A DNA stretch of 64,000 nt, taken from NCBI GenBank assembly GCA_964016885.1, contig OZ024743.1, positions 359,662,001-359,726,000 of the forward strand. The letters run 5' to 3'. This document shows positions 2,115 to 60,925 of this stretch, one piece after another (positions within the stretch are counted from its first letter, which is position 1; each line of letters starts with the position of its first letter). The notes under the pieces were generated by a model. The model worked only from the letters and a program-made list of their open reading frames with translations. It had not been told where the DNA came from and did no database searches. Source of the stretch: Eledone cirrhosa. Taxonomy: Eukaryota. The position numbers were made by a program, and so were the translations under genes.

Positions 2115-5100
2115 TGGTTTTATAATTTCACAATTTTTTTCCCAATAGAGAGAGAGAGTCGGTTTCTTATATAGACGCAATACTCTCTCATTGGAATTTA
2201 CACAACATCAACTAGGTAGATATGTATGTCTGCATGCATGTGTATGGATGTGTATGTTTTGAGTTGTATGTATGCATGTATATATGATTTGTATCTGTAC
2301 ATGTGTATATGCAATTATTAGATGCAACATTTTGGGAATGTTTTACATATTTTTACTTTTCCATTAATGGATTGTACTTGTAATTTCCTAACTAGTTGCA
2401 TTCTTTCTGCTCCTATGAAGCCTAGCTTCTCAAGATTTGTATTGTGGCAGTTACTAACATACCCCAGTGCCTCAATAATGACAGGCATAAATCTGAAGGT
2501 GTAATCAGGGTGGGGTATCTGCAGATTTCTCACCAGTTCTGCATAAATATTCTCCTTTTGGCTAATCTTTGATATAATATTGGCATCTGCTGAGCAGCTA
2601 ATTTCCACTACTGTGCAAGCTTTCTTCTCCCTGTCCCATATCATAATATCTGGTCTGTTATGCCTGAATTTTAATGGGGTTTTTACTGGAACATTCCACC
2701 AGTACTCTTTCATATTATGTACAGGGATGTCTTCCACATTGCTGTAGCTTTTAATGTGTTTATTATCGGGGTTATCTTTTTTACGGATTACGTTGTACAT
2801 TGTTTTGGCCACTACGTCATGCCTCATAGGTAGATAGTACCGTGATGACATCTTTGGACAGCTGCTGATGAGATGGGTGATATCTTCGATGTTAGATCTG
2901 TAGGGTCTGCAATTGTTATCACATCTAGGTGGTTTGCCTATCTCTTTTGTGAACACGTATTTCGTGTTAATTTGCTGTTCTTGGATTGCAAATGCGTATC
3001 CTTCAAAGTGGTAGCCAATATAGCGGTTGTTGGTCCAAGATAGACTACTTTCCTCACCTATATTACTCTCACTCTGTAGCTTCCTGGCAACATATCCATG
3101 CATGATCTTTTGCTGATAAGCCTGCAGTTCTTCCTACATGGATTCACTGCGATACTGCTGAGCGACTTCCCTGGATGTGAGTTTTGATTATCACACAGGG
3201 AATATTTCTCAAGGATGTCCTTTCCAACTCTCATGATTTTATCTGTTTCATGCAGATAGACCTGCTCGAGAGACGGGCTCCTACGCATTCGAGTTTCGTA
3301 GATGTTGTCGGAGGGATATGATGCGACATTCAAATGCTGTCTGGGCTGATGTTAGACCTCTGCTTCCCTGCTTACGTTTCAAGTAAAGGCGGTCTATGTC
3401 ACTGTTGATGTGGAAGTTTCCGGTGTTGTTTAGTATTTTTCGAGTTCCAACATCAACTGCTCGGATTTCGTCTATCGTCCAATTGAGTATTCCAAGCGTT
3501 GGTGTTAGGACAGGCACAGCAAACACATTGTGAGCCACTGTTTTGTTTTGCGCAGAGAGTTCCGATGATCAAATCTTTCTTAATCGGGTGTAGTATTCCC
3601 TGGTTACGCGTTCCCTATTACAGATACCATTATAGGATATGTTCTCATCTATCCCCAGGTATCTGTAGCAGTCCTCATCAGATATCGGTGAAACAGTTAG
3701 GCCTTTGATAACAATGTTTCTAGATTGGGTTGTTGTTTTCCCCGCTTTACAGTCATATATGAGCATTTATCTTGGCCAAACTCCATTCCTATGTCCTTTA
3801 AGTTCGTTGTAACCAGGTCAAGATTTTTCTTCATCCCATCCATGTTCTTGGCATAGAGTTTCAGATCATCCACAAAGAAATTATGGGTTAGGTTCGTATT
3901 TCTGTCCTCCTGCGAGCCAATAATGTATCCTTCACATTTCTTGAGCAGAAAGGAGAAGGCATTTAATGACAGGATGAATAATATCACAGAGAGACTGTCT
4001 CCCAGAAATATACCCCGTGATATTTTATTTTATCAGTGAAAATAGAGTGCTTCCACTCTGTCTTTAACCTTAGGATAGTAGCCCAAGAAGAAGACAGCTT
4101 CTCTATGGCTCCGATAATAATGTCTGATACTTTAGCAAGTTGGAGGGCCTCTAATATCCAAGAGTGAGGAACAGAATGGAAAGCTTTCCTGTAATCCAGC
4201 CAGATTGTAGCCATATTCCTCCTAAGTTGTCGCACCTCCGACATCGCAGTTTTGTTGATTAGGAGTTGTTCAGCACATCTCCAAAACCCCTTTCTTTCCA
4301 GATGCTTGTTAATCTGTGATGATGTTATTATTTTCACAGTGATCTTGGAGGAATAGGTTCAGGCAGGCTGTATACATCTTATAGATCAAGTTCTGGCATG
4401 CAATGGGTCGGTAGTCCTTTGCCAAGTGGGTGTCTTCGTTCTTGGGGACCAGTAATGTTTGTGCTAATGTCAACCATTCTAGTATAAGTGTATCTCCCTT
4501 AAGAACTTGTTGGTAGAGGTCAATAAGATAGCTCCGATAGAATATCAGTTTTTTGTAACAGTAGCCGACATTCATGTCTCTTCCTGGTGTTTTCTTATCT
4601 TGGAGTTTTCCTATCACAATCTCAAGGGTACCCTCACTTATTTCGTACGTTTTTTGTTGTATAGTTCTTTCGGATTTCTCTTAGCCACACTACATCTAGG
4701 TTGAAATTCTTCTTTTCACTCCATATTTTTCCCCAAAAGGAATCTATGTCTTTCTGGGATGGGGCCTCAGTAACACTTATTATTTTGCCCTTCATATCTC
4801 TATAGACTGATGTTTGGTTTAGTCTGAATCTTTTATTAAGCACTTTTCTTTCATCTACCTTCTTCAGGTATCGGCGTTTTTCGCTAACAGCTCTCAATTC
4901 TTGTTTGAGGTGATCAGCTTATATTGAAGAGTTCTGGTTCTACTGTTACCAAACATCGTGTCTATTTTATTTTTCACTTTTTGTTGGTGAGGAGTGCAGT
5001 ATTTTTCTGTTTGTTTGCATGTAAGGAGCATTGTCACATATCCTATGGTTTATCGTAGGTCAGCAAACTTTTTCTATTTTAGTTATATATGATGGTATTC

Positions 5101-6185
5101 TTGGTGGTGTTTTGCTCTTGTTAATATCTCTGCTATCACCAAGATAATGCTTCACTGCCGTTGCTAAGGCATATAAACAGGCGTTGATTTGCCAAAATGT
5201 TGGCGCTCTTATCCGTCGTAAATATTCATCCCCTATTTCGTCAATAAGACGTAATATTTCAATAATTTTTTTATTTATTAAATATTGTTTGTTTTAATAC
5301 GTTCAGCAAGAGAAATGTTTATACATGAATTAATTTCTCTCTGGAAAATATCGTTGGGGGAAATTTTCAATTATTTATACTTTTGATTATTATCATTACC
5401 GATAGTATTTTCCACAACTGTCGAGAAAGATTCGGATGGTACACATGGTGTCAAATTTCTTCGATTATTATTATTATTTCTTCGATTATTATTATTATCG
5501 ATAGCGTTTTCCCCAGCATTTGAGCTCGACTTAGATGGTACACGTGGTGTCAAGTTTATTACAGACATAGTTGTTTCAAGGCATTGTTCGATCTGGCTGC
5601 TAGGAAGTCTCGTAGCATGGCGACCTGTAGCACGTGTTGTTGATCCCATGTTTGTTGTGGGGGACTTACAATTAATAATATTTTTCTTATTTTTACGTTC
5701 AACAAACGTCGATTGTTGGCGTAATTGTTTCGCTGTGAAATAATTTAGCTCTGGATATATTTCGTCCCAGTGTAGCTTCATTATATTCATATAGCCAATG
5801 GAGGGATTGTTTTTTTGCCATTTTATAAAAATTAAATAAATCATCATTAAGTTCGTAACTCCAAGAGAAATGCGATTTATAATTTCGGGTTCTTCTGTAA
5901 CTACAACTGAATAACTTTTGTTTATCTTTCTCGTTTTTCTTCGGTACTCTAATGATGTTTTTGTTGTTGATGTTGTGTTCATCCATGCTGTCTCTAGCAA
6001 ATCCCTGTAAAATGAATTATATATTTAGTCGGATATGTCTACGAATTCGAATAAAAGGCGTCTTCAGTAGATATAGCTAGAAGAATATCCAGTTATTTGT
6101 GGCATTACTGTCGGTGATAGTATTCATCTTAAATTTAATGAATAGTCTCCCACACGAAAATATGCGACTGATCGCCTTGACTGAC

Positions 6186-17179: not shown

Positions 17180-18165
<986 letters not shown>

Positions 18166-19401
18166 AATTAATTCCTGTCGCTTATTTAATAGGATATCTT
18201 TAGATTTCATTATTTCAAATAGTTCTTGGGAACATAATCTACATTCATTTCTATTATTTTGATAAGGGGTGGCTCTTTTGAGCACACTCCAGGTCATATC
18301 ATATTCTATATTCTTATTTCTATAACTATTAATTTTTTCTGCTAGAGATGTTGTATTAGCCAGTGCGGCGTTTTTGAAACTATGTTTGTGGGTATTAAAC
18401 CTTACCTTAAAATTGTTAGAAGTAGCTCCTATATATGAGCAAATAGAGTCTTTAGTTTTAACCTTACATTTATAAACTATGTTGTTAACAAGACAATTTC
18501 CTTTTAATGGGCAGTTTGCTTTGTTTCTACAGTTACAACCTTTCGTTAATTCTGTATTTGAGGAGATATTATGGTTAGTTTGATGTATTGGTGGTATACT
18601 TATGGTTTTTTTACATTTATATGCATTATAGGCACTTATATTTTGTTTTATGTTTTGGGTTGTTGAGTATGAGAATTTAACTGTTGACCTATTTAAGATT
18701 TGATGATATTTGTGGTTTGGCGGGAAGTTTTTCTCTAGGATATAAAAAATCTTTTTAGCAATATTATCCTTAATTTGTAAATTAAATGGAGCATTATACC
18801 AAGTAACTCGTCTATTCCGGTTTCTATGTTGTTTATTATTTTTATAGGTTGTATCGTGATGTTTACTCGGAGGATTAATGTTAATGACATCACCACGCAC
18901 ATTTTTAGTTAGATTTATTGATTTAGGTGTTTTATCATGTTTATTAGGAGTTTTATTGTTAACATTTATTAGAGTTGTATGATGAGTAGTTTTTTGAGAG
19001 TTACTATAGTTTATATTAGAGGAGTTGTTGGTATTTTGGGGTATAGTGTGGGTGGCATTTAGGTGTGTACTTTTCATTTGGTGTTTGTTGGTAATATTAG
19101 GTTGTATGTTTATAGTATTTTTAGTAGAAGGTATATATTCTAATCTATTTTTGTGGCCACTTCTATCTAGAGCTTCGTTATAGAAGGTCGCATTTTTATC
19201 AAATACATCTTGGTTAGATGAAAGGTTAGAAATTCTAAGTGATATATTATATGCAAGGTTTTTAAGGATAGATTTAGGGTGATTAGATTGTGAGTGTATG
19301 TAGTGTAAGTTTTGGTTGGGTTTATGGTAAGGTTGGTAGATACCCGTAGCTAAGTCTAAAGTTATATCTAGGAAATTAACTAGTTTTACTTGTGTTTTCA
19401 A

Positions 19402-20032
19402 AAGTAATATGAAGACTATAATAGTCTTTAAGGAAAGTTCTAATAAGCTTTTTGTTTTTTTCTATTTCTGAGAGGCTAAGGTTGTTGGAAAGAAGAAGAC
19501 AGTCATCACGATATAAACCACCTTTAAGGTGGGGGAAAGGAAGCATTTATGTTGAAAAGAAGAAAGAGGCCCACAAGATCAGTAATTTGGGCAGAATCGC
19601 TTGAACCCATAGTATATCAAATAGATTACTATATGTGTTTCTGGTCCAATATTCATTCTGAAATTCAATAAGTGTTAGTCTAGCATGTGTAATAATATTA
19701 ATGTCATCCAAAGTTAAGTTAGATCTATTTTTAGCAAATATCAAAGCTTTGTTCAGGAGTATAGGTGAAATAGAAGAATAGTAATTATCAATATCAAATT
19801 GTAGAAATGAAGCAGAAGATTTACATCTAATATTTTTAAACCAGTTAATTACCTGGGAAGTGTTTTCCCAGAGTGGTAAATTAACACGTTTTCTTATTTG
19901 TGGGATGACTCTATCCAAAATTTTTTTGCTAATTATTCCAATATCAGATTTGGAGGGACATATAAGTCTTATAGAAGGATTTGCGTTAAAGTTTGATGTA
20001 TGATCCTTCAGGTTAAAGTGTGGTCTTTTCAA
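19402..20032 (-). pseudogene. PLE reverse transcriptase core, frameshifted and 5'-truncated
   Basis: LKDHTSNF..PSIRLICPSKSDIGIISKKILD; FLQFDIDNYYSSI; GGLYRDD at ~19502-19522 in another frame. Confidence 0.85.
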
Positions 20033-20111
20033 TGTATTTCATTGGTCAATTTGAACTCTGTTCCCAAACAGACCTGTAATTTTGAATTGTTGTTATTATC
20101 AATAAATATAT

Positions 20112-36999: not shown

Positions 37000-37701
37000 A
37001 TAAATATACATGTATATATATACATGTATATATATGGGTGTGTATAATATAATATATGTAAATATATATAAATATATATATATTCATGATGGCTGCCCCT
37101 CGTTATCGAGTATGGCCATTGCACGATATACCATTATTAATAATTATCAATTCTTCTCCTAGAAGAATGCCCTGACAAAGGCTAGGGGTCCTTCACTCCC
37201 AGTAGTTTAACTGAACGATCAGGTGACCAGCCCGACTATTTTCATGTCACCGCGCATACACATACAAATACACCCATGTACATATACAAACATATATGTA
37301 CATGTGTATATACATATTTACACACTTTTGGATGGCCGTTGACTATTATGAGTTCTTCCGCCCTTTGTCAGGTTTTATCTTTGTCTTGCAAGGTGTTCAA
37401 AATCACCCTCCTCACCAAGTAAACTTGGTGGAATTGCCGGTTTATTCGCTGACGACTCGATCATGCGAGAGGTTGTACTGGTTACATGTTACCAGTAGCA
37501 CTCAAGAGTGACCCGACATACATACATGTATATATATACACACACACTCACACACTCACACACACACACACACATATATATATATGTGTATATATTTATA
37601 TATATATATATGTATACATATTTATATATACATATATATATATATATATACATATATACATACATATATATATACTTATATATATACATATATATATGTA
37701 C

Positions 37702-37766
<65 letters not shown>

Positions 37767-37970
37767 CACAAACACTCACCCACACACACACATATATATA
37801 TATATGTGTATATATTCATATATATACTGTATATATATATATACATATATATATATATAGAGAGAGAGAAAATTGAGGTTGGTAATGGCACATGGAATAT
37901 ATAAGAGACAGAATACTTTTTTGTGAAAAAACATATAATTTTATAAGGTAAGGAAATAATAAAGCGTATA

Positions 37971-38020
37971 AAAAATGACCGGTTTCGATGGGTCTGCAAA
38001 AGCCATCTTTTCAAATGTTG
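37971..38020 (-). ncRNA. U3-A8 HHR in the 3' pLTR
   Basis: Reverse complement: aacat TTGAAAA gatgg..ccatc GAAA ccgg TC atttt. Confidence 0.7.
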
Positions 38021-38383
38021 ATTAATATTAAGAAAAATTAATAATACGAAGAGTTAAAATTTGACATTTGAAAATTCAAGTATAAAATTCATTGTGGGAT
38101 TTCATAGTAGTTTTCATCCAGGTAGCAACAACAAGTTGACTGCTGTGTCCCTTTCTGGTAGTGAATGAGAAGTTATTTGGGGTGTGGGTTATTTTATAAA
38201 GGTCAGATTTAGCAATGGCCAACTGGCCAGCTGCTGGTCAGTGAGGGGGTGGAAGCAATATACATATATCTTCCTGTGGTGGGTAGGAGAGTGGAGCGTG
38301 ATAGAAAGGGATTTAGTGCACTTACACCTATATATACACACATACCTTCATCCACACATACATACATATACATATACATACAC

Positions 38384-38420
<37 letters not shown>

Positions 38421-38581
38421 CACACATACATACACACACACATACATATACATACACACATACACACACACACATATATACACATACACACACATATATA
38501 TATACACACACACACACATATATACATACACATACATCCAGATACACACATACATACACACACACACACACACATATATAT

Positions 38582-38631
<50 letters not shown>

Positions 38632-38729
38632 CCACACATACATACACACACACACACATATATATACATACACACATACAAACATACACACACACATATA
38701 TATATATATACATACACACACATATATAT

Positions 38730-38764
<35 letters not shown>

Positions 38765-39223
38765 CACATACGCATACATCCAGATATACACATACATACA
38801 CACACACACACACACACACGCACACAATACATACATCCACATGCACACACATACACACACACACACATATACACATACATACACCCACACACAGAGAAAT
38901 GGCCTCCAAATATATATATATATACATACATACACATATATTTTTTCCATAATATAAGAAGTTGGGACAGTGAAATTAAAATACAAGTCATTCTGATCAC
39001 ATTGAGTTCTTCATGTAGATTGGGCCCCGCAACCGACAGTGGTGAATTCTGTGTGCGCATATATATATAGATATATGTGTGTGCACGTGCAGGGTTTAAC
39101 ATGGAGGTGTTGGTCACACAAAGGCATGGTCTGTCAACGAATAAACCTGATTCTACAGAATTGGTCTCTGGTCTTTAATAGTAGTGATTCCGTGCGTATG
39201 TGTGTTTATATTTTATGACAATT

Positions 39224-40285
39224 CTATTGGGGTGATAACCCGTTTAGTTTTGGTTTAAATTTGTTAAGGAATAGATTTTCTTTGTTTATTCTTTGTTGCT
39301 GTGTGAACGAATCTGAGCACTTGTAGAAGGGGAAGATTTTAAAGTTGGGTAGTGTCATTCCTGCGCAGTTCGCAATATGGCTGCTCAAGGGGATTTTTCT
39401 TGTGTTAGCGTCCCGGATTTGTTGGCGGTGGATGGTCATTCTTTTGCGTAATGAGGTGCCCGTCTGTCCTATGTAGTTGTGTTTGCACCCACCGCAAGTT
39501 ATTGCGTAAATCAAGTTCTCCGAATTGCAGGTGAAATTGTTTTTTACTGTAAATGTTTGGCCATCTTTGAATGTAAATGTTTGTTGCACGTTGAGGCACG
39601 TTGCACAGTTTGTTCTACCACATTTGGTAACTGTAGGGTTGAGGATTGGTTTGGGTATATTTGGTCCAGCGAGAATGCGTTTAAGTGATTTGGGTTGTCT
39701 TTTACTTTTAAGGATCTTGTGTGTTTCTAGAATAGACTTCATTTTTACATCTTTAAGTAGGATGGGGAGGTTTTTGTGTAGGTGATCAAACATTTCGGTA
39801 TTTCTGGGGTTGAAAGTGGATACATATGGCAGGGTGTTGAGTGTGGTTTTCTGTTTTGGATTGTTAAGTTGATGGGGATTTAGGTGTTTTGCCCTGTCTA
39901 TTCCATTGTTGATTATTTCAAGTGGAAAGGCTCTTATGATAAGGGTGTCTTTTAGTTCCTTTAGTCTTTGCTCCCGTTTAGGTGGATCTGATACTATGGT
40001 ACATATACGTTTGGCCAAATTGTAAGGAATGTTAAGTTTTGTATGTTTTGGGTGACTTGATGTGAAAAAGAGGTATTGCTTGGAATCTGTGGGTTTATAA
40101 AATATATCTGTATCTAATTTCCCGTCTATTGCAGAGATGAGAATATCAAAGAAGGCTAATTCCTTAGGATTGGATTCCATTGTGAATTGTATGTTATTAT
40201 CTATGTTGTTTATCATGTTTTTAAACGTAGTGAGTTCATGTCTTCTTGCCATAGGATAAAGCAGTCGTCTAGATATCTTTTCCAA
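39224..40285 (-). CDS. PLE RT thumb, Cys linker and GIY-YIG endonuclease (C-terminal part, after one frameshift)
   Basis: IQFTME..LAFFDILI..TDIFYKPTDSKQYL..SSHPKH; CGRTNCATC; NLIYAITCGGCKHNYIGQTG..RMTIHRQQI..SSHI..E..KPKLN. Confidence 0.9.
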   Translation of the reverse strand: MEKISRRLLYPMARRHELTTFKNMINNIDNNIQFTMESNPKELAFFDILISAIDGKLDTDIFYKPTDSKQYLFFTSSHPKHTKLNIPYNLAKRICTIVSDPPKREQRLKELKDTLIIRAFPLEIINNGIDRAKHLNPHQLNNPKQKTTLNTLPYVSTFNPRNTEMFDHLHKNLPILLKDVKMKSILETHKILKSKRQPKSLKRILAGPNIPKPILNPTVTKCGRTNCATCLNVQQTFTFKDGQTFTVKNNFTCNSENLIYAITCGGCKHNYIGQTGTSLRKRMTIHRQQIRDANTRKIPLSSHIANCAGMTLPNFKIFPFYKCSDSFTQQQRINKENLFLNKFKPKLNGLSPQ

Positions 40286-41490
40286 TTGGCTTTGAGGTGT
40301 GTGTGGAAAGAGTCTCCAAATAAGAGAAGGGACTGACTGTATATTTGTTGTTCATGGAATCCCATGACTAGGTTGGCATATGTGGGTGCTACTTTCGTGC
40401 CCATTGCCGTACCTGATACTTGTCTGTATGTTGAACCATTGAATGTGAAGTAGTTATTTTGTAGGATAAAGCGGAGTCCGTCAGTGATAAAATCTGTGTT
40501 GATGCGTGTCGGTATTTCTGATGGGTGTGTGTTAAGCCAGTATTGGACTGCTGTTATTCCATAGTTGTGGGGTATGTTTGTGTAGAGGTTTATTACGTCA
40601 AAGGAGACAAGAATTGTATTTGCACTTACTGTTTTAGGGAGGTGTTTCAGCATGTCAAGGTCATCTCGTATGTAGCTCTGTATATGTTGTAGAAAGGGTT
40701 TCAGTAGGATGTCCAGAAAGTTGCTAAGTCTGTGGGTTTCACATGTAGGGCCTGCTATAATTGGCCTGAGTTTTAGGTCTTCTGGTGGTGTTAGTTCAAT
40801 GTAATTGTTGGTTGAGGTGTCACATGCATCGTTTATGGGTTTACATTTGTGGAGTTTCGGTAAGCCGTAAAAAGAGCTTGTATTGCATTTGAAGTGGCTT
40901 ATATAGTTAAACTCTTTTGTGGTTAAGCTGCTGCGGTATTTATTCAGTAAGGTCAAAAGGTTCCCCATTGTTTTGGTGTGTTTGTAGTTTTCTGTTTTTT
41001 CATAGTATGTGTTGTTTTCTAAAATGTTAAGTGCGAGGGTCCTATAGTAGTCCGTATTCATAATGACAACAGTACTGCCTTTATCGGCTTCTTTGATAGT
41101 TATCTCAGGGTTGTTTCTAAGTGTGAATAATTCTTCCCATTCGTGTGTAGATAGGTTTGATTTCTAGTGTTTATTTGTAATTTTTTCATAGGGAAAGTTG
41201 GTGATGTGTACGCAGTACGTGTCCAGTGCTTTATTTCTTCCCTTTTGTGGGCAGAAATTGCTTTTATTTCTAACCAGGGATTCGTCTTCAGTGTTGGTGT
41301 CGTTGTGGAAGAATTCCGTTAGTCGCAGCTTTCGGCAGTATTCCATGATGTCATCCTTCATTTCGGGGAAGTTTGGTTTACGTGGTGTAGGTGTAAATTT
41401 CAGGCCCTTACTTAAAATGTTGATTTGTGTGTTGGTTAGAGGTGTCTTTGAGAGGTTGATTATTTTTGGTTTCTCCTGAGGGGGGGCCAT
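40213..41490 (-). pseudogene. PLE reverse transcriptase (one in-frame TAG at 41164, one frameshift near 40240)
   Basis: IINLS..LSKGLKFTPTP; ITIKEADKGSTVVIMN; FYGLPKLHK; LRPIIAG; SFDVINLYTNIPH; GTAMGTKVAPTYANL; WKRYLDDCF. Confidence 0.9.
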
Positions 41491-42725
41491 CGAGTATCCT
41501 GGTATTTCAGGCTTTTCCCTAAAAAAGGAATGTAGTTTTGTGTGTGATTATATTTTGTTGGTCTGTTGCGTGTGGGTCTGTAGCTTGTTGTTTCATGAGG
41601 GTGAATGTGATGGTGGGGGTGGTATGTGTTGTGGTTGTTGATGAGCAAGGGTTCTGTTGTTGGTTCATGTGGTCTGGGTGCGTTATTTCTGTGGTACAGA
41701 GTGTTGAGGTTGGGGGGTTGTCTTTTGTTGGATTGAGGGTGATGTCTGGTGTGGTTGTGGGTAAGTTCTGTTGTGATTTTAAGTGGTCTGGGTGGATTTC
41801 TTCTGAGGAATGTGGTGTCTGTGTTGTGAGTTGGATCTATGTTATTTCGTCGTTGGTTTATGTAGGGGGCATTTCTACGGAAACCTGTGTTGTGGTGGTT
41901 GGGTGTGTTTCTTTTGGTGTAGTTGGCCGTATTTGGTTTGTGTTGGTGGGGGATGTGCCTGTGGTTAGTGTGTGTTGGGTTTGGTGGTGTAAATGTGTCT
42001 GTTGTAGTTCTTGTTATGTTCAAATGCTTTATAAAGGGGTTACCTGTTTGGTGCGTCCTTTTAAAGTCTTCTTCATATTTGAGGAACCAGTTTTCGGATT
42101 TTTCCCACCGTTTAAGGGAAATAATTTCTGCATTCTCGCAGTCCTGTTTCCACGATTTGATTAAATTTTGTAGGGTTGTTCCCTCGGCCTTTTTAGTGCA
42201 TTCTTCCTCTATATTTTTATCAGTATCCTTATACTCTTGCTCGTTTGAGGTGGCCCTTAATTTTAGGAGTTCTATTTCCATGTTTATCCTGTTGAGTGAC
42301 ATTTGTTCGCGGAGTTTTCTTTCTGGTTCAGGTTCGTTTGTAATATGCTTTATTTGGAATTTACGTGGTAAAACTATCGGTGTTGAGTTAATCCATTTTT
42401 GGTAAATTCCAGCTTTGTTGAGGTTTTTTATCATATTCCAGAAAGTGAATTTTCTGGTTTTTAGATGTTTTTTCCAGAGGTGTCCCATTTGGTTTTTGAT
42501 ATGGAGCAATGTCGTTTGTTCTGTGTTGGTATTCATAAGTTTTTCGATGGAGTTGCATACGTTTTGAACGTTTAAATAAATTTGGTTATCAGTCGGTGTG
42601 GTGGTTTGGGGTATATCCTGTTTTTTTGTCAGAATGGTGAGTTTTCCATATATCTCTTTTAGGATTTTCAGGATTTCCTCATTTATATTGGAGTTTGAAG
42701 TTGTGTTGTCTTGTTCCAGTGCCAT
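41460..42725 (-). CDS. PLE ORF1, 421 aa (helical/coiled-coil-like N-half, His/Asn/Thr/Pro-rich C-half), intact
   Basis: Open ATG-to-stop frame directly downstream of the 5' pLTR, overlapping the RT ORF in the -1 frame. Confidence 0.8.
   Translation of the reverse strand: MALEQDNTTSNSNINEEILKILKEIYGKLTILTKKQDIPQTTTPTDNQIYLNVQNVCNSIEKLMNTNTEQTTLLHIKNQMGHLWKKHLKTRKFTFWNMIKNLNKAGIYQKWINSTPIVLPRKFQIKHITNEPEPERKLREQMSLNRINMEIELLKLRATSNEQEYKDTDKNIEEECTKKAEGTTLQNLIKSWKQDCENAEIISLKRWEKSENWFLKYEEDFKRTHQTGNPFIKHLNITRTTTDTFTPPNPTHTNHRHIPHQHKPNTANYTKRNTPNHHNTGFRRNAPYINQRRNNIDPTHNTDTTFLRRNPPRPLKITTELTHNHTRHHPQSNKRQPPNLNTLYHRNNAPRPHEPTTEPLLINNHNTYHPHHHIHPHETTSYRPTRNRPTKYNHTQNYIPFLGKSLKYQDTRWPPLRRNQK
41470..41526 (-). 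promoter_or_regulatory. Putative -1 programmed ribosomal frameshift signal (U UUU UUA plus downstream hairpin)
   Basis: ORF1 codons CCT TTT TTA GGG AAA AGC CTG. The -1 frame is open into MAPPQEKPKIINLS. CCTG..CAGG stem starts 8 nt downstream. Confidence 0.7.
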
Positions 42726-42895
42726 TTTCCGGATTTGCGTAGGTTAGTATATATGAAAAGTGTAATTTTCTACACAAAACGAAGGTTATAGAGAAAATTG
42801 AGGTTGGTAATGGCACATGGAATATATAAGAGACAGAATACTTTTTTGTGAAAAAACATATAATTTTATAAGGTAAGGAAATAATAAAGTGTATA

Positions 42896-42945
42896 AAAAA
42901 TGACCGGTTTCGATGGGTCTGCAAAAGCCATCTTTTCAAATGTTG
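42896..42945 (-). ncRNA. U3-A8 HHR in the 5' pLTR, predicted cut 176 nt upstream of the ORF1 ATG
   Basis: Core at 42933-42939; the C of GUC is at 42902. Confidence 0.7.
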
Positions 42946-43953
42946 ATTAATATTAAGAAAAATTAATAATACGAAGAGTTAAAATTTGACATTTGAAAAT
43001 TCAAGTATAAAATTCATTGTGGGATTTCATAGTAGTTTTCATCTAGGTAGCAACAACAAGTTGACTGCTGTGTCCCTTTCTGGTAGTGAATGAGAAGTTA
43101 TTTGGGGTGTGGGTTATTTTATAAAGGTCAGATTTAGCAATGGCCAACCGGCCAGCTGCTGGTCAGTGAGGGAGTGGAAGCAATATACATACATATATCT
43201 TCCTGTGGTGGGTAGGAGAGTGGAGCGTGATAGAAAGGGATTTAGTGCACTTACACCTATATATACACACATACCTTCATCCACACATACATACATATAC
43301 ATATACATACACATATACATATATATATACATATACACACATACATACACCCACACATACATATACATACACACATACACACACACACACACATATATAC
43401 ACATACACACACATATATATATTTATACACACACACATATATATACATACACATACATCCATATACACACATACATACACACACATATATATATATATAT
43501 ACACATACGCATACATCCAGATATACACATACATACACACACACACACACGCACACACAATACATACATCCACATGCACACACATACACACACACACATA
43601 TACACATACATACACCCACACTAGAGAAATGGCCTCCAAATATATATATATATACATACATACACATATATTTTTTCCATAATATAAGAAGTTGGGACAG
43701 TGAAATTAAAATACAAGTCATTCTGATCACATTGAGTTCTTCATGTAGATTGGGCCCCGCAACCGACAGTGGTGAATTCTGTGTGCGCATATATATATAG
43801 ATATATGTGTGTGCACGTGCAGGGTTTAACATGGATGTGTTGGTCACACAAAGGCATGGTCTGTCAACGAATAAACCTGATTCTACAGAATTGGTCTCTG
43901 GTCTTTAATAGTAGTGATTCCGTGCGTATGTGTGTTTATATTTTATGACAATT

Positions 43954-44436
43954 CTATTGGGGTGATAACCCGTTTAGTTTTGGTTTAAATTTGTTAAGGA
44001 ATAGATTTTCTTTGTTTATTCTTTGTTGCTGTGTGAACGAATCTGAGCACTTGTAGAAGGGGAAGATTTTAAAGTTGGGTAGTGTCATTCCAGCGCAGTT
44101 CGCAATATGGCTGCTCAAGGGGATTTTTCTTGTGTTAGCGTCCCGGATTTGTTGGCGGTGGATGGTCATTCTTTTGCGTAATGAGGTGCCCGTCTGTCCT
44201 ATGTAGTTGTGTTTGCACCCACCGCAAGTTATTGCGTAAATCAAGTTCTCCGAGTTGCAGGTGAAATTGTTTTTTACTGTAAATGTTTGGCCATCTTTGA
44301 ATGTAAATGTTTGTTGCACGTTGAGGCACGTTGCACAGTTTGTTCTACCACATTTGGTAACTGTAGGGTTGAGGATTGGTTTGGGTATATTTGGTCCAGC
44401 GAGAATGCGTTTAAGTGATTTGGGTTGTCTTTTACA
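43954..44436 (-). pseudogene. Duplicated GIY-YIG endonuclease segment in the upstream partial-tandem copy
   Basis: Protein identical to the C-terminal ~160 aa of 39224-40285 from KRQPKSLK onward. Confidence 0.9.
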
Positions 44437-44464
44437 TTTAAGGTAATTTTTCTTAATATTAATC

Positions 44465-44512
44465 AACATTTGAAAAGATGGCTTTTGCAGACCCATCGAA
44501 ACCGGTCATTTT
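44465..44512 (+). ncRNA. U3-A8 HHR in the inverted pLTR
   Basis: TTGAAAA(44470-76) gatgg..ccatc GAAA(44498-44501) ccgg TC. Confidence 0.7.
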
Positions 44513-44654
44513 TTATACCCTTTAATATTTCCTTACCTTATAAAATTATATGTTTTTTCACAAAAAAGTATTCTGTCTCTTATATATTCCATGTGCCATT
44601 ACCAACCTCAATTTTCTCTATAACCTTCGTTTTGTGTAGAAAATTACACTTTTC

Positions 44655-45414
<760 letters not shown>

Positions 45415-45879
45415 CTAATGATATCAGATTTATTTAACTGAATAATACATTGACTTTTCACTGCAACCGTGTGTAAGATGAAGTCATTTGAAGCCAACAT
45501 GTTAATTCCTAAATATTCATATTTTGTTCAATTCTCTACAATTTGTATTTCATTTCCATGCTAATTATATTTCACATATCTCCCTGGTATACAAAAAATC
45601 CCCTTTTATTATTTTTATTCTCTTTTGTTAGATAGATTTCGCGAAAGTGGTAGATGTAATGAATGTTAGTGGCCGTTTAAAGTCTGTGGTCGCTGCATTT
45701 CATATGCATGGCGACGCTTATTTTCGTTTTTGTTTCCTCATGAGCTATGCATACACAAGCGCACACTTACACTCCGAATAACACGTACAAACACTCATGA
45801 CCATATATAAATATATGCAATTGTATATGCCAAAAGAACATACATACATACCCTACACTTCAATCCAGCCGTTGATATA

Positions 45880-46570
45880 CACATCAATCCGCATTTGGTG
45901 CTGGCGACAGGATCTTGAACAGAGCATGCTGGAATACCTGAGCGGACCCTGGTGTCAGATCTTATCTCACAGAGGTGGGCTGAACAAGATTTTTCAAAGT
46001 TCTTTATAACTTCGTGTCAAACTGTTCTCAATCTTTTACGATAGGCAGTCATGGTTTCAAACGAAGAAAGAGGTACGTTGACAGACTTCAGATTGTACTT
46101 CAGTTTGTCCTTATATCGGAGTAGTGACCTGTCCACACTATGCACACCATTCTGGAGCTGACTGTACAACAGTACCTTAGGTGTGGGGTCGTCAGACATC
46201 CGTAGGACATGACCAGTCCATCTGCGTTGGGATTGCATCAGAAATGACTCAATCCCACCAATGTTGCACCTTGTGAACAGCTCGGCATTGGAAGCTGTCA
46301 TACAGTGTTTATACACAGACAGAGCGAAGACAACGTTTGTGGAAGACATCAAGCTTATGTATGTGAGTGCGGTAAAGTCTCCATGACTCTGGGCCATATA
46401 AGAGTGTTGTCAGTACCACTGTACGATAAACTGCAACTTTTGTTTTCAGGGATATACATCTGACACTCCATAGGCGGCGATGTAGTTTGCCAAGAGCATC
46501 AGTTGCCTTGGAGATGCGATTAACAATCTCATCATCCAAGAATGCAAAGAGGTTCACCTTGCTACCACAT
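45880..46570 (-). mobile_element. RTE (BovB-like) LINE 3' fragment
   Basis: DDEIVNRISKA..LWS..ISLKTKVAVYRTVVLTTLLYGPESW..FHKRCLRS; RWTGHVLRMSD..PKVLLYSQL..RYKDKLK. Confidence 0.85.
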
Positions 46571-58294: not shown

Positions 58295-58590
58295 CTAGAG
58301 GGAAGTTCCCATCCCATTGTGTTGTTATTGTCCATATAGCTTGAGGAAGGTCCCGGCCCTGAGGTGTATGCATGTCCCGGAGGAGTCCCTATAGCTTGAG
58401 GAGAATTCCCATCCTAATGTGTTGTTACTGTCCATATAGCTTGAGGAAGGTCCCGGCCTTGAGGTGTCTACATGCTCTGTAGAAGTCCCTATAACCTGAG
58501 GGAAATTCCCATCCCAATGTGCTGTTACCGTCCATATAGCTTGAGGAACGTCCCGGCCCTGAGGTGTCTACATGTCCCGAAGAAGTCAGT
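58295..58590 (-). repeat. ~100-bp tandem repeat, 3 copies, containing the PLE ORF terminus
   Basis: ttcccatcc..gtccatatagcttgaggaa.gtcccggcc.tgaggtgt at 58306, 58405 and 58506. Confidence 0.88.
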
Positions 58591-59166
58591 CCTGAGGTTT
58601 ATTAGGCTGCTTCCACCTCTGAGTATCTCGAGGGGCTCGCTCAGACATAGTTTGCAGATGCCAGATCCCCCTTTATCAGGTGCTACTTTCCTGTTTATGG
58701 ACCAGGCCAGAGAGTACGGGATATTGTCCAACTTGAGCTTCCAGATCAATTCGGAAAGAGCCGTACTTTTCCTTTTGTCCTCCCTATTGAAGGAATGGCG
58801 ATGGTTATACCATCGGTCTTTAAAGCTCGTTGATGTGGCTCCTATGTAAAGGTGTTCAGAGTTGGGGTTTTTTACTCTACATCCGTATATTAAGTTCTTC
58901 CTAAGGGGGCGTAATTCGGGGTTTCTGCAGTTGCAGGAGGTGGTCGACCTCAGCGTTCTTAGTGTGGGGTTCCCATTACGTGTTATATGGTGGTCTTCCC
59001 CCGGGCCCGGTGGAGGGTCCCTGGGTCTATTTGGGTTTCCAGGGTGGGCACTGGGTCCACCCTTCTTTCCCTCCACATGGTTCTGCTGGGTGCTTATATT
59101 GCCAGCTTCTGGATGTGTGTGGTTTTTAAGTCTACCCCTATTGATGCTAGCTATGTGCTGGGCCAC
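58525..59166 (-). CDS. Naiad-type PLE GIY-YIG endonuclease remnant
   Basis: SCNCRNP..NLIYGC..YIGATSTSFKDRWYNHRHSF..STALSELIW..CKLCLSE..IN.R.D..CRH. Confidence 0.8.
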   Translation of the reverse strand: MAQHIASINRGRLKNHTHPEAGNISTQQNHVEGKKGGPSAHPGNPNRPRDPPPGPGEDHHITRNGNPTLRTLRSTTSCNCRNPELRPLRKNLIYGCRVKNPNSEHLYIGATSTSFKDRWYNHRHSFNREDKRKSTALSELIWKLKLDNIPYSLAWSINRKVAPDKGGSGICKLCLSEPLEILRGGSSLINLRTDFFGTCRHLRAGTFLKLYGR

Positions 59167-60925
59167 ATTTCTCTCTCTATATATAGTGAAAAAGTGAAGA
59201 ATAACATGGTGCGCTGCATAAAAGGGTTTTATTTACAGTATTAACACTTGTTTCATTGATCAGGTGAATTTAAAGGCCGCTAATCACTAGAAATTGCGTC
59301 ACTTGACCTTAAATACAGTGTGCGTCTCCGATCAAATCATAGGAATACTGAATGATGTAACACAAGGCACTGGTATTTATAGATACATCAGAGAATCAAG
59401 TAAATGAAAACAATAACACCAATAATAGAAAATAATGAATTGATGAAAAATAAAAAATAAAAATATTAGAAAAATAAAAAAAATAATAAAAAGATAAAAA
59501 ATAAGGTTATTGATAATAGTAGTAGTGGTGATGGTATATGAAGTTATAATTGTTTCTACTGTTGGCACAAGGCCATCAATTATCCCAGTGTAGTAATGAA
59601 GTTATAATGGTGAGTAAGTGGGTATGTAAATTAGTGATGATAGTAATGATAACAATAACATGAGAAGACATATGGTATATGATAGGCAACATTTTGGTGA
59701 GTGGACAGCGTATATTATAGTGTATTGAGTTTATGAATTAGCGAAATAAAAATGCAAAAAAGAAAAAATAGAAAATATATTAAAGGATTAAAATAAACAG
59801 TAAGAGAGATAAAGAACATAAAGAACAAGAGATAGAGAGTAAAGAGTAAGGATTCGAGGACGAGACAAAAGGATAGGAGAATAGATAAATAGAGAATACA
59901 AGTGAAAGGGATAGTGATGATATATAGGTGATTCAGATTGGGTAGATTGACTAATTTATTTTAATGGTGGTGATGCGACTATAGAGAGAACGGGAAAGAA
60001 AGGTTGAGGGATTCCCGATGTTGATTTAATGACCAGTTGAAAAAAAAAAATATATATATATATATATTTTTTTTTTTTGCTGGCCTTGTGTTAAACGTAG
60101 AAACATTATTATAGTTTCAACATTCAATGCAAGACGTTACGTAGTCTTCTACACAATTATCTTAATGGTTTGGGGTTCCGGCTGCGTCTGTGAGAAAACT
60201 AATTTTTTTACTCTGCTTTATCCCACTCAGTTGATAAAACAGATTTACATGAAAATCAAAGATCCACTGGTCACACACTGTTTCAAGCTAACTCTCCCAG
60301 AATTTTGTGTGTGGAATCCTCATCTACACGCACGTTTGTTTCTCGAACAAGCTGTACCATTGTTTCAACAAGTAAAACACTCATCATTCGTCGTTGAAAG
60401 CGATGGAAATCCCACGCAACAATATTACTAAAATAAAGTACCTCATACAATGCAACATCTCTAGGACAAACCGATTATTTTGTGATATTGTAGACGTTAG
60501 TACTGATAGGAAGTAGAGAAATGAAATAGTGAATTCTATAGCATTTTGAAATGGTTAATGCTTGATAACATATTGCTTTTGTTCATGGGAGCTGTGTCAT
60601 CTCTCGTTTCATTAAAGTTTCCACTGGAGACTTTTTCTTAGTTTCTATATTTTTCATAATTTTACATTCACTTTCAATGAATATTACTTTGTTTCAACTT
60701 TCTTGTTTTCTATTTCTATTCGTTTATGGTTCCTTCAGATTTGTTTCCATTATTATTTTCATAAATACACATATTTCAAATAGACATACTTCGAATATAT
60801 GCCATACATATGAATAAACTTGTATCTAATTTCTTAATTTACTTTTTCTTCTTCATCGTTCTATATATATGGATACACATATGCAGATAATGACAAAATG
60901 TAACCCACTCATACACCCACATAGA

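Follow-up and report, generated by a model that had tools for sequence, protein, structure and literature searches.

A two-ORF Neptune-type PLE of Eledone cirrhosa whose frames are offset by -1 at a conserved heptamer, U UUU UUA

The element and its first protein

The window analysed here, a 64,000-nucleotide stretch of the Eledone cirrhosa genome, carries on its minus strand a PLE composed of two overlapping ORFs and flanked by pseudo-LTRs (pLTRs), the features of which are summarized in Table 1. The first-pass annotation had proposed an intact 421-aa ORF1 with a U UUU UUA heptamer in X XXY YYZ phase, followed by a -1 frame that is open from the heptamer into the RT N-terminus. Coordinates and frame bear out both proposals: the first T of TTTTTTA immediately precedes ORF1 codon 400 (offset mod 3 = 2), which gives U UUU UUA, and the -1 frame, whose last upstream stop lies at 41550-41548, is open from seven codons before the heptamer and reads FFREKPEIPGYSMAPPQEKPKIINLS into the RT N-terminus.

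Table 1. Features of the element and its surroundings, in positions of the window
Feature	Position	Strand	Remark
ORF1, 421 aa	41463..42725	(-)	ATG at 42725, 421 codons, intact
ORF1 stop TAA	41460..41462	(-)	21 codons past slippery Phe
Slippery heptamer U UUU UUA	41520..41526	(-)	X XXY YYZ phase with ORF1
Overlap of ORF1 and RT frame	41463..41547	(-)	28 codons
ORF1 codon 13 from slippery Phe	41487..41489	(-)	UGG; stop there in many relatives
First AUG of RT frame	41490-41488	(-)	overlaps ORF1 codon-13 UGG
CCUG/CAGG hairpin	41498..41511	(-)	4 bp, chance-level, unconserved
ORF2, -1 frame	39224..41526	(-)	RT, CX4CX2C linker, GIY-YIG endonuclease
3' UTR, internal microsatellite, downstream pLTR	37865..39223	(-)	
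Upstream pLTR	42748..43621	(-)	repeats element's 3' end 37865-38695; self-alignment
5'-truncated upstream copy (EN and 3' end)	43263..44661	(-)	self-alignment
Inverted pLTR piece	44444-44661		self-alignment

The domains of ORF2 were identified through Pfam (RVT_1, E 2.5e-07; GIY-YIG, E 4.3e-06), and copies of the same family (family A) also carry a CxxC between the GIY-like and YIG motifs and two His. The window copy is unable to make a full RT-EN because its ORF2 contains a TAG at 41166-41164, after 120 codons of the -1 frame, and a second frame break near 40230. A PLE-type RT with a C-terminal GIY-YIG, together with pLTRs, places the element among the endonuclease-containing (EN+) PLEs, and the partial tandem and inverted pLTRs form an arrangement typical of PLEs; the single ORF of EN+ PLEs is replaced here by two ORFs that overlap in -1. 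Athena and Coprina (EN-) differ in that GIY-YIG is present here and copies are dispersed over many contigs. Assignment to Neptune was made on the linker (CGRTNCGTC in copies, conforming to the Neptune CX2-5CxxC before the endonuclease) and on the linker-to-EN spacing, judged by eye, all rows of our RT tree being unnamed.

A hammerhead-like variant motif was noted by eye in the upstream pLTR (~42939-42901), where Rfam reported no hammerhead at E<=1 and the fold gave z -0.74; over 37500-46000, Rfam returned solely microsatellite-driven miRNA matches under the gathering score. In runs X1-X3, contig depth in the pLTR region 42684-43085 was ~50-140x that of ORF1, which suggests very many short non-autonomous pLTR copies, and depth dropped from EN to ORF1, as 5' truncation predicts. 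Elsewhere in the window, 18112-20038 (-) and 58525-59232 (-) are 5'-truncated pieces of another type of PLE, whose CxC..CPL linker and C-terminal CxH are consistent with the Hydra clade as given in a supplement legend of PMC8557442, and 2318-3133 (-) and 5371-6024 (-) are fragments resembling an R2/REL-type non-LTR retrotransposon (CCHC, PD..D by eye).

The AlphaFold model of ORF1 (mean pLDDT 80) predicts five long helices in the N-terminal ~235-240 aa, and the protein ends in a basic, low-complexity tail rich in His, Asn, Pro and Thr (K+R 27 vs D+E 8 in 186 aa). No match to the window ORF1 was obtained from Pfam, eight related ORF1s gave nothing above the Pfam cut-off (weak sub-cut-off matches for five of the eight), the fold search of the PDB returned nothing at E<=0.001, its weak rows being generic helical bundles, and the ESM Atlas gave no usable match. 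A profile of the ORF1 core reached 1,078 clusters (50% identity) at E<=0.001. As judged from the model, ORF1 belongs to an unannotated helical family, and because long helices are combined with a basic disordered tail, we infer that it may multimerise and bind RNA as a component of the RNP, which would make it comparable in role, and not in fold, to LINE ORF1p or Gag.

The ends of these proteins were compared in the 107 homologs that have both the core and at least 70 aa of tail, at the protein level only, with codons unseen. Phe-Leu occurs within the last 35 aa in 81 of the 107, and within the preceding 35 aa, taken as control, in 6 of the 107. No ORF1 homolog of 469-2000 aa was present among 7,998 scored candidates, which is weak evidence. 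Two individual proteins deserve mention: P0133, one of the 150 best homologs, ends in RT-like letters by eye, and P0034, a bivalve gene model, holds an ORF1-like piece and RT in one protein.

The heptamer in genomic copies and relatives

A junction search of the 3.0-Gb genome gave 634 candidates, of which 40 were scored and found to be 99-100% identical throughout. T6A is kept in 30/30 of the best family A copies, with a full 421-aa ORF1 in phase in 10 of these 30, and all eight copies picked for intactness combine the 421-aa ORF1 with a -1 ORF2 of 768-770 aa. When the pattern was searched with a free gap of 4-12 nt, 174 matches were obtained; among the 100 listed, 94 were exact, five carried same-length substitutions and one had T5, so that the -1 offset is kept in 99 of the 100, and the fused T7 form of family A had no match in the genome. 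The comparison of genomic copies that the first-pass annotation had proposed thus finds heptamer and offset conserved.

Two sister families, B and C, were found in the same genome with a diverged ORF1 query (P0003), and their RTs share 57% and 56% identity, respectively, with that of family A. The RT N-terminus was recovered in 44 of 50 sister-family loci, and 35 of the 44 carry the in-phase heptamer, the other nine looking decayed. Counts of T6 against T7 copies are 245 vs 8 in family B and 364 vs 5 in family C. The 13 T7 copies (of 622 in both families) lie interspersed with T6 copies, for the most part on long branches, and an intact fusion survives in none of the 13; three from family C group together and may form a small old T7 lineage. 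Between families A, B and C, dN of the ORF1 core is 0.35-0.39 against a dS of 1.7-1.8 or saturated, which points to purifying selection on ORF1.

Foreign relatives comprised 120 loci with an RT alignment, 76 of them with the RT N-terminus, and 56 long-RT rows (own families included) entered a quick tree with long branches flagged. The window clade (11 rows, SH-aLRT 100) holds families A, B and C and elements L089, L133, L134, L137, L140 and L147; L139 and L141, too short for the tree, were added on RT identity of 48-54%, and L198 had too little upstream DNA for its junction to be judged. Within this enlarged clade, eight elements read U UUU UUA and two U UUU UUG, all in phase, and L140, in which the upstream frame is broken, carries A AAA AAC two codons into its open RT frame. 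Seven foreign elements, with RT identity down to 31%, keep an in-phase U6 at the overlap, so that the in-phase heptamer and -1 offset hold in families B and C and beyond this genome. A slippery junction is not universal in these PLEs, because, once the clade and the G GGU UUU group described below are set aside, 22 of the 44 remaining foreign RT rows (e.g. L144-L146, L149-L182) are without one.

It is in this comparison that a simple loss of a base can be judged, namely that the true element is single-ORF and that the T run lost a base in the window copy or its master. The first-pass annotation had itself named a single-frame family with an indel private to this copy as the outcome that would undo its claim. 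While the window copy does have other lesions, and canonical EN+ PLEs are described as single-ORF in passages of PMC8557442, the offset is fixed in three families and in foreign relatives, and the RT N-terminal profile matches none of the 150 best ORF1 homologs, none of which exceeds 541 aa. Copy counts in families A, B and C and in the foreign relatives refute the private indel, and decay is almost certainly not the explanation.

Among 9,358 background codon positions, four carry T6 in phase, corresponding to ~1% per overlap, as against 10 of 10 overlaps examined; with hand-picked sites and related elements, multiplying these chances does not yield a p-value. The overlaps of the ten U6 elements range from 4 to 29 codons, and the six T's are the only invariant positions in a 67-nt anchored comparison. 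What is observed, then, is two ORFs with a -1 offset fixed in hundreds of copies and a heptamer that is kept while its flanks are saturated.

A more distant RT group (~29% identity) presents G GGU UUU/C at the same junction, at the end of a different helical ORF1. It consists of L184, L186, L193, L194, L197, L199, L200, L206 and L208, all from one assembly, and also of L096, L188 and L101, the last with G GAU UUU at its junction. A putative conserved GAC..GC..GC..GUC stem lies 9 nt downstream in this group, with 78.6% of cells paired (reached in 6/500 shuffles) and just two pairs changed on both sides (79/500); for nine elements of one assembly this is only suggestive of a genuine stem. U_UUU_UUA, G_GGU_UUU and A_AAA_AAC are all listed as known -1 sites in the part of PMC5009743 consulted. 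In a separate observation, L089-L132 are animal-type PLEs that lie in contigs binned to several prokaryote genomes, host contamination being the most probable reason.

Frameshifting, its alternatives and its possible stimulus

Taken together, these data lead us to propose, with a probability of roughly 85%, that -1 programmed frameshifting at the conserved U UUU UUA joins ORF1 to RT-GIY-YIG. Most ribosomes would terminate at the ORF1 stop; the minority that slip back one base at the heptamer would yield an ORF1-RT-GIY-YIG fusion of ~1,170 aa. Tandem tRNA slippage would give a product reading F-L-R-E-K, with some F-F, and the trans-frame peptide YIPFLREKPEIPGY would be expected across the shift site. 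The claim of a two-ORF Neptune-type PLE with a -1 offset at a conserved heptamer passes all of the sequence tests proposed for it, save that of the stem discussed below.

Slippage of RNA polymerase or RT on U6 could instead add a base in some RNAs, which would then be read in one frame. Such an origin is compatible with the T7 copies of families B and C (13/622), with an extra base in the T run at 41520 in contig 26 of run X4 (depth 4.86; may be an error), and with RT slippage at U6A reported for HIV (PMC5737442). It is, nevertheless, quite improbable: the G GGU UUU and A AAA AAC sites keep X XXY YYZ phase and are not long homopolymers, phase relative to ORF1 is fixed, and the T7 genomic copies did not expand. 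The extra base in the X4 contig may reflect an error, the copy of another individual, or slippage.

A second alternative, which we likewise regard as very unlikely, is that TTTTTTAG is a 3' splice acceptor, RT-EN being made from spliced RNA that lacks the bulk of ORF1 or in which the RT frame is fused to an exon further upstream. An AG does follow the T run in eight of the ten U6 elements (the G after the site, present in 8/10, also spells a YYYYYYAG acceptor), some PLEs contain introns (PMC8557442, Fig. 1 legend), and gene model P0034 contains both an ORF1-like part and RT. Against this, (i) L089 and L147 read TTTTTTG-T and L140 reads A AAA AAC, with no acceptor AG, and AG is absent from most G GGU UUU sites, (ii) every run consists of exactly six T's and contains no C, and the 14 nt upstream are just 7-21% T, with no pyrimidine tract, (iii) at least 18 of the 81 homologs follow FL with a residue whose codons never begin with G (Y, F, W, P, H, N or L; codons unseen), and (iv) splicing would not require the constant -1 relation of ORF1. 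Contigs of four runs contain no joint at the heptamer, and, the kind of run being unrecorded, this is neutral on splicing.

Independent translation of ORF2 from a LINE-1-like bicistronic RNA, its start being an AUG late in ORF1 that ribosomes reach through leaky scanning or re-initiation, would make the U run incidental. In family A, an AUG of the RT frame does lie 12 codons downstream of the heptamer, 28 nt short of the ORF1 stop, and many database RT proteins begin at M just before the IINLS motif. The first Met, however, falls at codon 155 in family B, 59 in family C, 138 in L089 and 174 in L147, beyond the conserved N-terminal motifs, and the invariant heptamer is left unexplained, which makes an independent start highly improbable.

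With frameshifting as the preferred reading, the nature of its stimulus can be considered. A CCTG..CAGG or CCTGA..TCAGG stem had been put forward in the first-pass annotation. The 4-bp stem does start 8 nt downstream of the heptamer, as claimed, but its role as stimulator did not hold up, the fold being at the level of 200 shuffles (z = -0.03 for 45 nt from +6; z = +1.12 for 80 nt) and unconserved, and the stem was rejected on these grounds. No conserved 3' stem or pseudoknot was detected among the ten U6 elements (z between -1.7 and +2.0; family C unfolded), and a pseudoknot scan was better than shuffles in one of 11 elements, L089, where U UUU UUG is followed by a possible H-type pseudoknot (L089:1202-1290; 0/40 shuffles as good). 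The proposed likeness to the HIV-1 context fared no better, since GGGAA is specific to the family and due to chance beyond U6AG, sister families B and C reading GAC after the heptamer. Because no strong 3' RNA structure is present, the shift rate would be low, and a candidate for the pause favouring the slip is a ribosome waiting at the nearby ORF1 stop.

The position of this stop was compared among ORF1 homologs (P0124-P0271). Of the 75 that reach codon 13 from the slippery Phe, 25 stop there (10 codons after the site), compared with none at codons 5-9, 11 and 12, one at codon 10 and four at codon 14. If the RT frame merely required an aliphatic residue here, Ser, Phe and Leu would serve at codon 13 as well, yet each of them occurs in just one homolog. 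As 22 of the 25 belong to one large subtree, descent contributes, but their tails are unalike; a separate subtree of nine proteins stops at codon 4. At the nucleotide level, family C, L139 and L147 have the codon-13 stop; in families A and B and in L134 the codon is UGG and the stop comes 7-10 codons further on. A disome footprint measures 54-63 nt (PMC12086091, in part), of which the 30-nt spacing is about half, and a ribosome pile-up acting back on the shift site has been proposed for yeast antizyme (passages of PMC5009743). A tentative and, on balance, unlikely extension of our reading is that a large and ancient branch of two-ORF EN+ PLEs, with an undescribed ORF1 family of its own, shifts -1 without RNA structure, by means of a ribosome terminating 30 nt (about one ribosome length) downstream. 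A terminating ribosome parked at the codon-13 stop would stall the next one on U6, and families A and B, with UGG at codon 13 and a stop ~10 codons on, might use a second queue position.

Teaching, annotation and reconstitution alike treat EN+ PLEs as having a single ORF; the clade described here has an unannotated first protein (at least 1,078 clusters at 50% identity), and, to go by its sequences, its RT is most likely made as a minor frameshift fusion. If true, consensus ORFs called from the first Met before the RT motifs miss ~400 N-terminal residues, and an ORF1 partner has to be added to the PLE RNP model. As a young, multi-copy animal family with ~99% identical copies, family A lends itself to a direct test of the claim, and the missing stem together with the fixed stop spacing offers a natural test of -1 stimulation by terminating ribosomes.

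Comparison with known systems

In Athena, ORF1 is separated by a frameshift with a pseudoknot, and Arkhipova et al. are said to have described in 2017 a frameshifted coiled-coil ORF1 in the EN-deficient Athena/Terminon PLEs. With these PLEs, the element here shares a helical ORF1 upstream of a PLE RT and joined to it by a frameshift; it differs in possessing GIY-YIG, in being dispersed and not telomeric, and in showing no pseudoknot.

Canonical EN+ PLEs are called single-ORF in passages of PMC8557442 (Craig et al. 2021) and PMC11167929, in agreement with the first-pass statement that they are usually described so. The Fig. 1 legend of PMC8557442 mentions that ORF1 can be split off by a frameshift with a pseudoknot, leaving the clade unnamed, and Neptune may be drawn in that figure with a frameshifted ORF1. 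With the Neptune clade of the same source our element shares the RT, the CX2-5CxxC linker and the C-terminal GIY-YIG with CCHH, as well as pLTRs, partial tandem, inverted pLTR and microsatellite surroundings, and its linker-to-EN spacing is long by eye, like that of Neptune1_Nv and unlike that of Nematis. It departs from Neptune, which is single-ORF according to the abstract, in a separate 390-440-aa helical ORF1 that overlaps RT in -1.

An extra upstream ORF in EN+ PLEs is also shared with Neptune-like elements bearing an SGNH esterase ORF (passages of PMC3905857 and PMC5408684) and with Fundulus Neptune, which has a short non-overlapping ORF1 (bioRxiv 10.1101/2025.05.22.655539, in part). Unlike these, ORF1 here has no esterase or other Pfam match and overlaps RT at a slippery site, and the portions of the three sources consulted contain no passage on PLE frameshifting. 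Further, the portion of the frameshifting review PMC5009743 examined does not mention Penelope, 'frameshift' is absent from the parts seen of the octopus repeat annotation PMC13282606 and of a 2026 retrozyme preprint, and the part of PMC3846280 covered mentions frameshifts solely as defects. We found no published -1 slippery site in an EN+ PLE in this literature; Repbase/Dfam entries and some figures, which lie outside its coverage, may hold one. The mechanism is classic and known in some PLEs, but we came across no published account of this EN+ clade, of its ORF1 family, of the lack of a stem or of the fixed spacing of the stop.

HIV-1 gag-pol uses the same heptamer in the same phase, with a structural ORF followed by enzymes in -1 (PMC5009743 and PMC12086091, in part). 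The element here is not a virus, has no strong 3' stem-loop and encodes an ORF1 without a Gag-like fold match in the PDB, and the sequence likeness to HIV-1 that is common across the clade consists of U6AG.
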